From Dehalococcoidia bacterium (GTDB taxonomy: Bacteria > Chloroflexota > Dehalococcoidia > DSTF01 > JALHUB01), in NCBI GenBank assembly GCA_030018455.1, contig JASEFU010000001.1:61545-125544 (forward strand): a stretch of 64,000 nt of DNA, in the 5' to 3' direction. Below, one piece after another: positions 39,455 through 42,807 of this stretch. Position 1 is the first letter of the stretch. Each line of letters opens with the position of its first letter. The notes under the pieces are model-generated. The model was not told where the DNA came from. It worked only from the letters and a program-made list of their open reading frames with translations, and ran no database searches. The translations under genes and the position numbers were made by a program.

Positions 39455-39712
39455 GTAATGAACAAAAACCTTGCTATCCAAAGCTGTAAACACGTCCACT
39501 TCATTATACCAGAAGCGCGCAAACGCTGTTCTCGCCCTCTCCTCCGAATGGCCGCCCGGTCGCTGAGCCACCCATGCGCCGGCCGCCTGTAGAGCCTCTC
39601 GCCGCCCCGGCGACGGGAACGCGACGCCTGCCTCTCTCGGCTTCGACTGCTTGCCGGGCGCTTAGACAGCATCGTAGAATTAGGCAAATCTGTCATTCAG
39701 GCGAGAGCTTTC

Positions 39713-40576
39713 GTGGAAATCCGCAAAGGCGTCATTCTCTGCGCCGGTCACGGCACCAGGCTCCTTCCCGCCAGCAAGGCCCAGCCGAAGGAGACCTTTC
39801 CCCTCGTCGACCGGCCAATCATCCACTACGTCGTGCAGGAGGCGCTCGATTCCGGCCTCGAACAGATAATCATGGTCACTTCTGCCGCCAAACGCGCCCT
39901 TGAAGACTACTTCGACCGCGCGCCCGCCCTCGAAAAGGCGCTGGAGGAAAAGGGCGACGCCGAACGGCTGCGCGCCGTCGTCGACGCGGCGGAGATGGCG
40001 GACCTAGTCTTCCTGCGGCAGAAGGAACAGAAGGGCATCGGGCATGCGGTCTCGCTCACTGAACAGATCATCTGCGACGAGCCCTTCGTCCTCTTCTTCC
40101 CCGACGACGTCATCCTGGCCAGGACCCCGGTGACCCGCCAGCTTATCGACGTTTACGAGCGCTACGGCGGCCCTGTGCTCGCCGTGCAGCGCGTGCCCGA
40201 GGCCGAGGTGGAAAGCTACGGCGTGATCGACGGCGAACGCGCGGGCGAACGCGTTTTCCGCGTGCGCGGCCTCATCGAGAAGCCGAAGGCAGGCGAGGCG
40301 CCGTCCAATCTGGGGATAGTGGGACGCTACGTGTTGACGCCGCACATCTTCGGCGCGCTGAGGCGCACGTCTCCCGGCATTGGCGGCGAGCTGCAGATCA
40401 CGGACGCCATCGCCAACATGCTGGCGCAGCAGCCCGTGTTCGCCTGCGAGTTCGAGGGAAAACGCTTCGACACCGGTCGGCCGCTGGGACTCCTCCAGGC
40501 GTCCATCGAAATCGGACTGCTGCACCCCGAAATCGGCCCGCAACTCCGGCAGTACCTGCGCGATCTGAAGCCATGA
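39713..40576 (+). CDS. galU: UTP--glucose-1-phosphate uridylyltransferase
   Basis: RKGVILCAGHGTRLLPASKAQPKETFPLVDRPIIHYVVQEA… (G-x-G-T-R-x-L-P nucleotidyltransferase motif), …EQKGIGHAV…, …FVLFFPDDVI… 287 aa. Confidence 0.85.
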   Translation: MEIRKGVILCAGHGTRLLPASKAQPKETFPLVDRPIIHYVVQEALDSGLEQIIMVTSAAKRALEDYFDRAPALEKALEEKGDAERLRAVVDAAEMADLVFLRQKEQKGIGHAVSLTEQIICDEPFVLFFPDDVILARTPVTRQLIDVYERYGGPVLAVQRVPEAEVESYGVIDGERAGERVFRVRGLIEKPKAGEAPSNLGIVGRYVLTPHIFGALRRTSPGIGGELQITDAIANMLAQQPVFACEFEGKRFDTGRPLGLLQASIEIGLLHPEIGPQLRQYLRDLKP

Positions 40577-40604: not shown

Positions 40605-41981
40605 ATGAGAGTCCTCTCCCTGGGCTTTGCCCTGCCGAACCCCAGCATCGATAACTACAGCTTCGCCAGCGCGCCCTCTTTCTTCGACTACGACGCCCTT
40701 GTCGTCGACCCCGCCGCTCTCTCCCGGCTGATCGAGGAGATAGCGGACCAGGCCGCGGAGCATGCGAGCAACGCCGGCGAGCCGCTGGTCAACGGCGCTA
40801 CCAGCCCTGTCGCCGTTGGCCTCGCGGACATGCTGCGACGCCGTCAGACGGAGACGGTGCGCCTGCTCTCTAAGGGCGGCGCTATCGTCTGCTTCGCCTA
40901 CCCGGATGTCTACCATCACCGCGTCGTCGGCTTCACCGGCTGCGACCGCTACTACTGGCTGCCCGCTCCCCCGGGGCTGCAGTACCGGGAGCCGCACCTG
41001 CTGCCGGGCGATGGTACCAGCGTCATCCCGACCGATCACGAGCACCCGTTCGCCGCCTACATCGACGCGTTCCGTGACCGCCTCGCCTATCGCGCCTACT
41101 TCAGCGACGCCATCCCCGGCTTCGACGGCTTCGGCCGGGTGTTTGCCCGCAGCGCCGGCGGCGCGGCCGTGGGTGTCGAGCTGCGGGTTGAGGCGGGACG
41201 GATAGTCTTCCTGCCGCCGGTCGCCGAGCCGGGCCGGGGCGCCGAGCGCCACCCGCTGGCAGAGACAATCGTCAATTGCCTGCGGCGCCTGCTCGCCCTC
41301 ACAGCGGAGGAGTCGCCGCCGCGCTGGGTGCGCGACCACACGCTGCCCGGCCTGCCGGAGCTCGAAGCCGAGCGCTCGGCGGCGCAAGAGGCGCTTTCGG
41401 GAGCATACGCGCGACTACAGGAGACCGAAGCGCGATTGAGCGATGTCGAGAAACACCGTCGCCTGCTATGGCAGGAAGGCAAGTTCGGGCTGGAGACCGC
41501 CGTTCGCGACGCCTTCGCGCTGCTCGGCTTCCAGGTGACCAAGGACATCGACGAACAGGGAGCCGTCTACATGGCGGGCGAGAAGCTCCTGCTCGAAGTC
41601 GAAGGCTCGCCGGAGGCCGTGGGAATGGAGCCCCACTACCGCCTGCGACGCCGTCTGGAGCAGGCCATAGCGGAGACCGGACGCCCGCAGAAAGGGCTCA
41701 TCGTAGTGAACGGCTTCCGACTCGCCCCGCCGGGGGAGCGCCCGCCGCAGTACTCCGACGCCCTGCGGGTCGCCGCCGAAAGCATGCACTACTGCCTCCT
41801 CGCTTCAACCGACCTGTTCGCCGTTGTGAAAAGGCATCTGGAGGGTGACGCGTCGGCGGCGAAGTCGTTGCGCGAACTGCTCCTCTTGTGCGAGGGGGCG
41901 CTATCGCTGGAGGACGGGAGTGAGGTCAAGCCCGGTGAAACGACGGAGCCGGAAGCCCCGCAACCCAAACATGAACGTTAA
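40605..41981 (+). CDS. uncharacterised 458-aa protein (N-terminal alpha/beta domain, central coiled coil, C-terminal alpha/beta domain)
   Basis: No signal peptide or TM. Coiled-coil segment …LPELEAERSAAQEALSGAYARLQETEARLSDVEKHRRL… The C-terminal alternating pattern (…EKLLLEVEGSPE…KGLIVVNGFRL…YCLLASTDLF…) is nuclease-fold-like, but this is inference only. 28 nt after galU, 12 nt before the next gene. Confidence 0.5.
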   Translation: MRVLSLGFALPNPSIDNYSFASAPSFFDYDALVVDPAALSRLIEEIADQAAEHASNAGEPLVNGATSPVAVGLADMLRRRQTETVRLLSKGGAIVCFAYPDVYHHRVVGFTGCDRYYWLPAPPGLQYREPHLLPGDGTSVIPTDHEHPFAAYIDAFRDRLAYRAYFSDAIPGFDGFGRVFARSAGGAAVGVELRVEAGRIVFLPPVAEPGRGAERHPLAETIVNCLRRLLALTAEESPPRWVRDHTLPGLPELEAERSAAQEALSGAYARLQETEARLSDVEKHRRLLWQEGKFGLETAVRDAFALLGFQVTKDIDEQGAVYMAGEKLLLEVEGSPEAVGMEPHYRLRRRLEQAIAETGRPQKGLIVVNGFRLAPPGERPPQYSDALRVAAESMHYCLLASTDLFAVVKRHLEGDASAAKSLRELLLLCEGALSLEDGSEVKPGETTEPEAPQPKHER

Positions 41982-41993
41982 GAAGGAGGACGA

Positions 41994-42807
41994 CGTGGCT
42001 ACAGCGAGGGAGAACGCGAAGGACTGGGCGCTCATTTTGGGGGCATCGAGCGGCTTCGGGGCCGCCACCGCCCTCGAACTTGCACGCAGCGGGATGAACG
42101 TCTTCGGCGTCCACCTCGACCTCCGTTCTACCCTGCCCAACGCCCAGCGCGTCGTCGCCGAAATCGAGGGCATGGGCCGCAGGGCCGTCTTCTTCAACAC
42201 CAACGCCGCCGACGCCGAAAAGCGCGCCGCCGTGCTGGAATCCGTCCGCGAGACGCTGAGCGCCCAAGGCCCCGATGCATCCGTGCGCGTCTTCCTGCAC
42301 TCGCTCGCCTTCGGCACACTCGTCCCCTTCGTCGCCGACGACCCGAAGGCGCGCGTCTCCCAGCGCCAGCTCGAGATGACGCTCGACGTAATGGCCAGCG
42401 CCCTCGTCTACTGGGTGCAGGACCTGGTGGCGATGAAGCTGATGCGAGCGGGCGGACGCGTCTTCGCCATGACCAGCTCCGGCTCGACCCGCGTAATCAG
42501 GAACTACGGCCCCGTGTCGGCGGCGAAGGCAGCGCTCGAATCATACGTCCGTCAGCTTGCCTACGAGCTGGCGCCGCTCGGCATCACCGTCAACGCTATC
42601 CGCGCCGGCATCACCGACACGCCGGCGCTGCGCAAGATACCGGGCGGCATGGAACTACTCGAGCGGGCGCAGCGCCAGAACCCCAGCGGCCGCGCGACAA
42701 CGCCCGAGGACGCCGCCCGGGCCATCGCCGCCCTCTGCGACCCCCGGACGCAGTGGATAACGGGCAACGTCATCGGCGTGGACGGCGGCGAAGACCTGAC
42801 GGCGTAG
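41994..42807 (+). CDS. SDR-family oxidoreductase, enoyl-ACP-reductase-like (FabI/FabL-type Y-x6-K active site)
   Basis: GTG start 5 nt after AAGGAGGA. …ALILGASSGFGAATA… (dinucleotide-binding) and …YGPVSAAKAALES… (Tyr-x6-Lys, as in FabI/FabL rather than the classical SDR YxxxK). Confidence 0.7.

Follow-up and report, generated by a model that had tools for sequence, protein, structure and literature searches.

Among the closest known systems to the protein described here are type IIS restriction enzymes, in particular the FokI cleavage domain and the nickase BspD6I with its small subunit, the Mrr-type nucleases, including the Pfam family Mrr_cat (PF04471) and AF1548 (PDB 1y88), and the non-catalytic class I glutamine amidotransferase-like (GATase1-like) domains of STM3548/STM1381, of ThuA-like proteins, of the middle part of GH42 enzymes and of the amino-terminal part of IFT52. 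Departures from the usual active site are tolerated in PD-(D/E)xK enzymes; in BamHI, a glutamate replaces the lysine. ERCC1, EME1 and the nuclease-like domain of RecC are inactivated nuclease folds reused for binding or scaffolding. Like the protein described here, they have kept the fold and lost the metal-binding residues, and their remodelled surface is strongly conserved; they differ from it in sequence and in context. They work within repair complexes as partners of active paralogues, and neither such a paralogue nor a partner nuclease was seen adjoining our gene.

The gene lies on the forward strand of the window, the whole 64,000-nucleotide stretch of Dehalococcoidia DNA that was analysed. 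Its open reading frame runs from an ATG at position 40605 to a TAA stop codon (41979–41981) and codes for 458 amino acids, exactly as predicted in the initial annotation. The peptides quoted there, GFTGCDRYYWLPAPPG (residues 109–124), HEHPFAAYIDAF, the helix LPELEAER...KHRRL, EKLLLEVEGSPE, KGLIVVNGFRL and YCLLASTDLFAVVKRH, are all present verbatim. Hundreds of full-length homologues (47%–89% identity) and one identical database entry make this a true gene, rather than a chance reading frame of a GC-rich genome. The description of the protein as an orphan has to be abandoned, as it has matches in 394 clusters at 90% identity (E ≤ 1e-3); an exhaustive search gave 1,325 matching cluster representatives at 50% identity at the same threshold, 458 of them at E ≤ 1e-10. 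It is nevertheless unnamed. There were zero matches in Pfam, NCBIfam and PADLOC, even at an E-value of 10, and a single non-significant match each in PHROGs and among PDB sequences.

The same applies to its relatives, none of which is placed in Pfam, NCBIfam, PADLOC or PHROGs; PDB profile searches with alignments of 59 and 15 family members returned coiled-coil noise only. The protein is a conserved Dehalococcoidia representative of a large family without a name, whose members are about 440 residues long and in which a GATase1-like domain, a heptad helix and a domain of PD-(D/E)xK fold follow each other, an architecture on which a full-text literature search found nothing. Full-length alignments extend down to 22% identity, and comparison with an Enterobacter plasmid member by hhalign gave a probability of 100% (E 1e-42). 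A structure model of a second member has the same architecture. Pro204, Pro239-x-Trp241 and Arg379 are invariant in the family, and Tyr116, Gly137, Gly198 and Asn369 nearly so.

The AlphaFold2 model has a mean pLDDT of 91.7 and contains the three parts anticipated by the initial annotation, an amino-terminal domain, a coiled-coil and a compact carboxy-terminal domain. The amino-terminal domain comprises residues 1–235 (40605–41309) and the linker residues 236–249 (41310–41351); in the latter, where the pLDDT dips, are the family-invariant motifs Pro239-x-Trp241 and Leu247-Pro-Gly, with Pro239 and Trp241 invariant in 59 diverse members. Residues 250–288 (41352–41468) form a helix of 39 residues according to DSSP. 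Its heptad periodicity is real across 44 homologues, with a Fourier amplitude of 4.95 at a period of 3.5 and of at most 2.8 at other periods; 75% of the a and d positions are hydrophobic, against 31% elsewhere. In relatives, this region gives sub-threshold Pfam matches to coiled-coil families. From this periodicity, the helix is presumed to be a dimerisation element. Many of the a and d positions are alanines, which would also suit packing onto the helix 212–234 of the same chain. No solved structure spans both domains (TM-score normalised to the query at most 0.27).

The carboxy-terminal domain (residues 289–435, 41469–41909) has the alpha-beta-beta-beta-alpha-beta core of the PD-(D/E)xK superfamily, with alpha1 at 293–306, beta2 at 320–323, beta3 at 326–334, alpha2 at 342–358 and beta4 at 363–369. 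The restriction-endonuclease-like fold that had been suspected for it is therefore correct, and it is of the FokI/Mrr/NucS type. There is no detectable sequence homology to FokI: hhalign gave a probability of 0.1 for the domain profile against the FokI cleavage domain. As mapping of residues onto FokI failed, the catalytic positions were taken from family conservation and strand topology. Our protein has a glutamine for FokI Asp450 and no counterpart of Lys469; it also differs from FokI-type enzymes in having a GATase1-like amino-terminal domain, rather than one for DNA recognition, and no methyltransferase partner. The Mrr_cat model does not match it even at an E-value of 10, and the D...(Q/E)xK residues of that family have been lost in its clade. 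Only 2 of 59 family members match Mrr_cat at all, the best with 18.7 bits, below the gathering threshold of 21.

The former active site comprises residues 316–352 (41550–41660) and has been remodelled, as judged from column counts in 44 close homologues, 59 diverse members and 80 species, and from a tree annotated with motif states. Most of the family have (Asp/Glu)316-x-Asp318 before beta2, Glu331-x-Glu333-x-(Lys/Arg/Ser/Thr)335 in beta3 and Lys343-x-x-Gln346 where the next helix begins. In our protein, Asp316 is followed by Gln318 in place of the family aspartate, Glu331-Val-Glu333-Gly-Ser335 is without lysine, and Pro343 replaces the family lysine. The helix His344-Tyr-Arg346-Leu-Arg348-Arg-Arg350-Leu-Glu352 stands where the family has Lys-x-x-Gln-Leu. 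The site residues are inferred to cluster in space from the topology, in which 318–319 lead into beta2, 331–335 are in beta3 and 343–352 open the next helix. Position 318, where the metal-binding aspartate should open the second core strand, is an aspartate in 45 of the 59 diverse members, a proline in 43 of the 44 close homologues, and Pro, Ala, Glu, Gly, Gln or Thr within the clade across the 80 species. Nor does the third core strand contain an (Asp/Glu)-x-Lys motif, and no relocated lysine makes up for it: position 335 is Ser, Ala, Gly or Asn in the clade, never Lys, and position 343 is Lys in motif-intact members and Pro, Gly or Ala in the clade. Position 346 is Gln in 36 sequences and Arg in 14. 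Conserved acidic and lysine residues, which the initial annotation proposed to look for, form a signature in most of the family; in the clade of our protein, Asp318 and the motif lysine are gone.

In the tree, this clade is a single Dehalococcoidia branch with a motif-intact sister lineage. Of the 44 members that fall outside this clade, 39 have an intact motif. Throughout the branch, Lys343 has been lost, Gln346 is gone (replaced by Arg in most members), position 335 is never Lys, and a new, basic helix motif, (His/Tyr)-Tyr-Arg-Leu-(Arg/Gln)-x-Arg-Leu-Glu, has become fixed. Loss of Asp318 maps to the sub-branch that includes our protein. Single-copy orthologues are found in 80 Dehalococcoidia species, with 25%–64% identity; a genome scan with the alignment of close homologues reaches Chloroflexota only.

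The gene is located in a syntenic housekeeping region with ispE, rsmA, the SRP RNA, galU and an enoyl-reductase-like SDR gene, a synteny kept across the 80 species; lepA, too, belongs to the surroundings. Directly upstream, on the same strand, is a galU-like gene for a UTP-glucose-1-phosphate uridylyltransferase (39713–40576; Pfam NTP_transferase, E 3.7e-29; NCBIfam galU TIGR01099 with 316.7 bits, slightly below the cut-off of 326.8), the stop codon of which is 28 nucleotides from the ATG of our gene. Downstream, an SDR of the FabL-like enoyl-reductase type is encoded on the same strand (41971–42807; Pfam adh_short_C2, E 6.2e-45), with FabL as its best NCBIfam match (170 bits against a cut-off of 328). 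It may start at the ATG at 41971, overlapping our gene by 11 nucleotides, or at an in-frame GTG at 41995; a Shine-Dalgarno sequence, AAGGAGG (41983–41989), is situated just past our stop codon and before this GTG. Consensus scans, which are weak evidence, gave a promoter-like site upstream of galU (39651–39680, forward strand) and no terminator-like site between the three genes. The FabL-like SDR gene immediately follows ours in 50 of the 68 species in which this could be tested, and in marine relatives a FabV-type enzyme fills the reductase slot. In 70 of 74 testable species, our gene is immediately preceded, on the same strand and at a distance of tens of bases, by one for a GalU-like sugar-1-phosphate nucleotidyltransferase. 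The adjacency is missing in four species, and a marine sub-branch, represented by two members, has none.

With its cutting residues gone and its gene fixed in a housekeeping operon after galU, the protein looks like a repurposed former mobile nuclease. Our main reading, to which we assign a probability of roughly 55%, is that it belongs to this large, unnamed family of nuclease-fold proteins with two domains, and that it has been exapted and fixed in the chromosome; most likely, its exapted role is that of a binding protein, non-canonical or non-cutting, and not that of a defence nuclease. We are highly confident of its anatomy and evolutionary history, while canonical nuclease activity has, judging from the residues present, probably been lost. 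A true functional link with GalU can be put forward only tentatively, and the adjacency could be inherited synteny without functional meaning.

An alternative that we consider unlikely, yet worth keeping in mind, is that the protein has remained an enzyme. It would be a nuclease or phosphodiesterase with a housekeeping role in DNA repair or in the processing of RNA and with a non-canonical site made up of Glu331, Glu/Asp333, His344 and arginines; its position after galU would merely secure constitutive expression. The fold is intact in a high-confidence model, with the repair nuclease NucS among the structural matches. Across the 80 species, Glu331 is kept in nearly all and Glu/Asp333 in most, and (His/Tyr)344, Arg346, (Arg/Gln)348, Arg350, Glu352, Asn369, Arg372 and Arg379 are near-invariant, as expected of a working site; on these grounds Glu331, Glu/Asp333 and His344 could form a non-canonical hydrolytic site. 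Against this, Asp318, the universal metal-ligand position of PD-(D/E)xK enzymes, has been replaced and then drifted in the clade, and position 316 drifts too, as do 335 and 343. Furthermore, a sister sub-branch has Val331 and Ala333 and retains His-Tyr-Arg-Leu-Arg, so what the clade has in common is the basic helix rather than the acidic pair.

The amino-terminal domain has the alpha/beta fold of class I glutamine amidotransferases (ThuA/STM3548-like), which was missed in the initial annotation; Arg80, Glu83, Tyr116, Trp118, Gly137, Gly198 and Pro204 are conserved family-wide. The Cys-His-Glu triad is absent and there is no Pfam GATase match. A true amidotransferase, with Gly-Phe-Thr-Gly-Cys as nucleophile elbow and His-Pro-Phe as the His-Pro-Glu motif, was considered and rejected, because Cys113, the only candidate nucleophile, is not conserved in the family and is replaced by Leu, Ala, Tyr, Ile, Phe, Val, Trp or Thr in other species. 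The known non-catalytic domains of this fold have no sequence-level relationship to ours and none is fused to a nuclease fold. A profile search for other fusion partners gave the family of about 440 residues alone among the best 120 matches.

This domain might be the working part of the protein, with the nuclease fold only as a scaffold. Together with GalU, it would serve the metabolism of carbohydrates or nucleotide sugars, and might do so by binding a glycan or UDP-sugar. Its closest structural relatives include ThuA-like proteins and accessory domains of carbohydrate-active enzymes (among them GH42 beta-galactosidases, a beta-1,2-glucosyltransferase, lacto-N-biose phosphorylase, Agd3 and OST48), one family member has a weak Pfam ThuA match (E 0.047), and the upstream slot is always filled by a sugar-1-phosphate nucleotidyltransferase, even if by a different paralogue, as at two loci where it has NTP_transferase and hexapeptide domains. 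We nevertheless regard this as quite improbable. Not only is the catalytic triad missing, but motif-intact mobile relatives share the domain and its conserved residues (Tyr116, Trp118, Gly137 and Pro204) and have no sugar-metabolism neighbours; in glycosidases, moreover, the GATase1-like fold is a non-catalytic oligomerisation domain.

Returning to the exapted binding protein, the ancestral proteins would have been DNA endonucleases of the mobile or defence kind, dimerised through a coiled-coil, with the amino-terminal domain acting as a sensing or partner-binding module; FokI, with a recognition domain and a cleavage domain that needs dimerisation, offers a comparison. The Dehalococcoidia branch would then have given up canonical metal-dependent cutting by carboxylates and lysine. 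What remains may be a dimeric binder, the arginine-rich former active site of which holds a phosphate-rich ligand, which could be a nucleic acid or perhaps a nucleotide sugar. The protein would be co-expressed with GalU, which would imply some tie to UDP-glucose supply or the cell envelope.

More speculatively, and with a probability that we put low, the mobile FokI/Mrr-type nucleases dimerised by a coiled-coil and carrying a GATase1-like sensor would be an undescribed family, perhaps a single-gene defence or addiction system. A single capture, in the ancestor of a large group of Dehalococcoidia, would then have been followed by the loss of cutting, leaving a protein that binds a ligand or nucleic acid through an arginine-lined site. 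Co-expressed with GalU, this binder would couple UDP-sugar status to a housekeeping process such as envelope synthesis, the handling of the chromosome or the control of cell size.

If the main reading is correct, it defines a sizeable family (1,300 or more clusters at 50% identity, from bacteria and archaea), with a domain combination new to Pfam, NCBIfam, PADLOC, PHROGs and the PDB, and provides a clean natural case of nuclease-fold domestication, in which, along one branch, catalytic residues were lost, a basic motif was gained and the gene was fixed in a core operon; a second branch of the family would have degraded its motif independently. It would also flag a conserved gene in the core genome of the abundant, mostly uncultured Dehalococcoidia; its tight coupling to a UDP-glucose synthesis gene makes it a concrete target for envelope and sugar-nucleotide biology. 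Existing ideas are not overturned, and we see the finding as a solid lead rather than a surprise.

The motif-intact members are patchily distributed, stand-alone genes in unrelated lineages and mobile contexts, including an archaeon, Bacteroidota, Enterobacter plasmids and toxin-antitoxin islands. No family members were found in phage and E. coli collections, and the mobile relatives have no common partner gene: the unannotated neighbours at four loci are mutually unrelated, with no significant Pfam match and one sub-threshold match to DUF3592. The initial annotation had linked our protein to defence or repair modules. That it serves in such a module as an active nuclease, of anti-phage or restriction type, is very improbable: the restriction-endonuclease fold, the two domains bridged by a coiled-coil and the distant relatives in toxin-antitoxin islands, beside AAA_21/RloB and on plasmids would fit, but the catalytic Asp and Lys are missing, PADLOC-DB 2.0 has no system-protein match for it (and two isolated single-member matches among 15 distant members, neither significant, with E 0.005 and 0.012), no neighbour in the window has a defence function, and a single-copy gene at a syntenic housekeeping locus in 80 species is the opposite of patchy, island-bound defence genes.

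If the exaptation reading holds, those members whose motif is intact, among them Enterobacter WP_049126869.1, may plausibly be new nucleases that mobile elements carry as stand-alone genes, and they are candidates for phage defence. An island-like, patchy context is seen only for these distant relatives, not in the clade of our protein, and the defence or mobile flavour suits them only. Their neighbours include a toxin-antitoxin island, AAA_21/RloB and Ogr/Delta; the Enterobacter members are carried by IncF plasmids, where they adjoin an integrase and IS elements.

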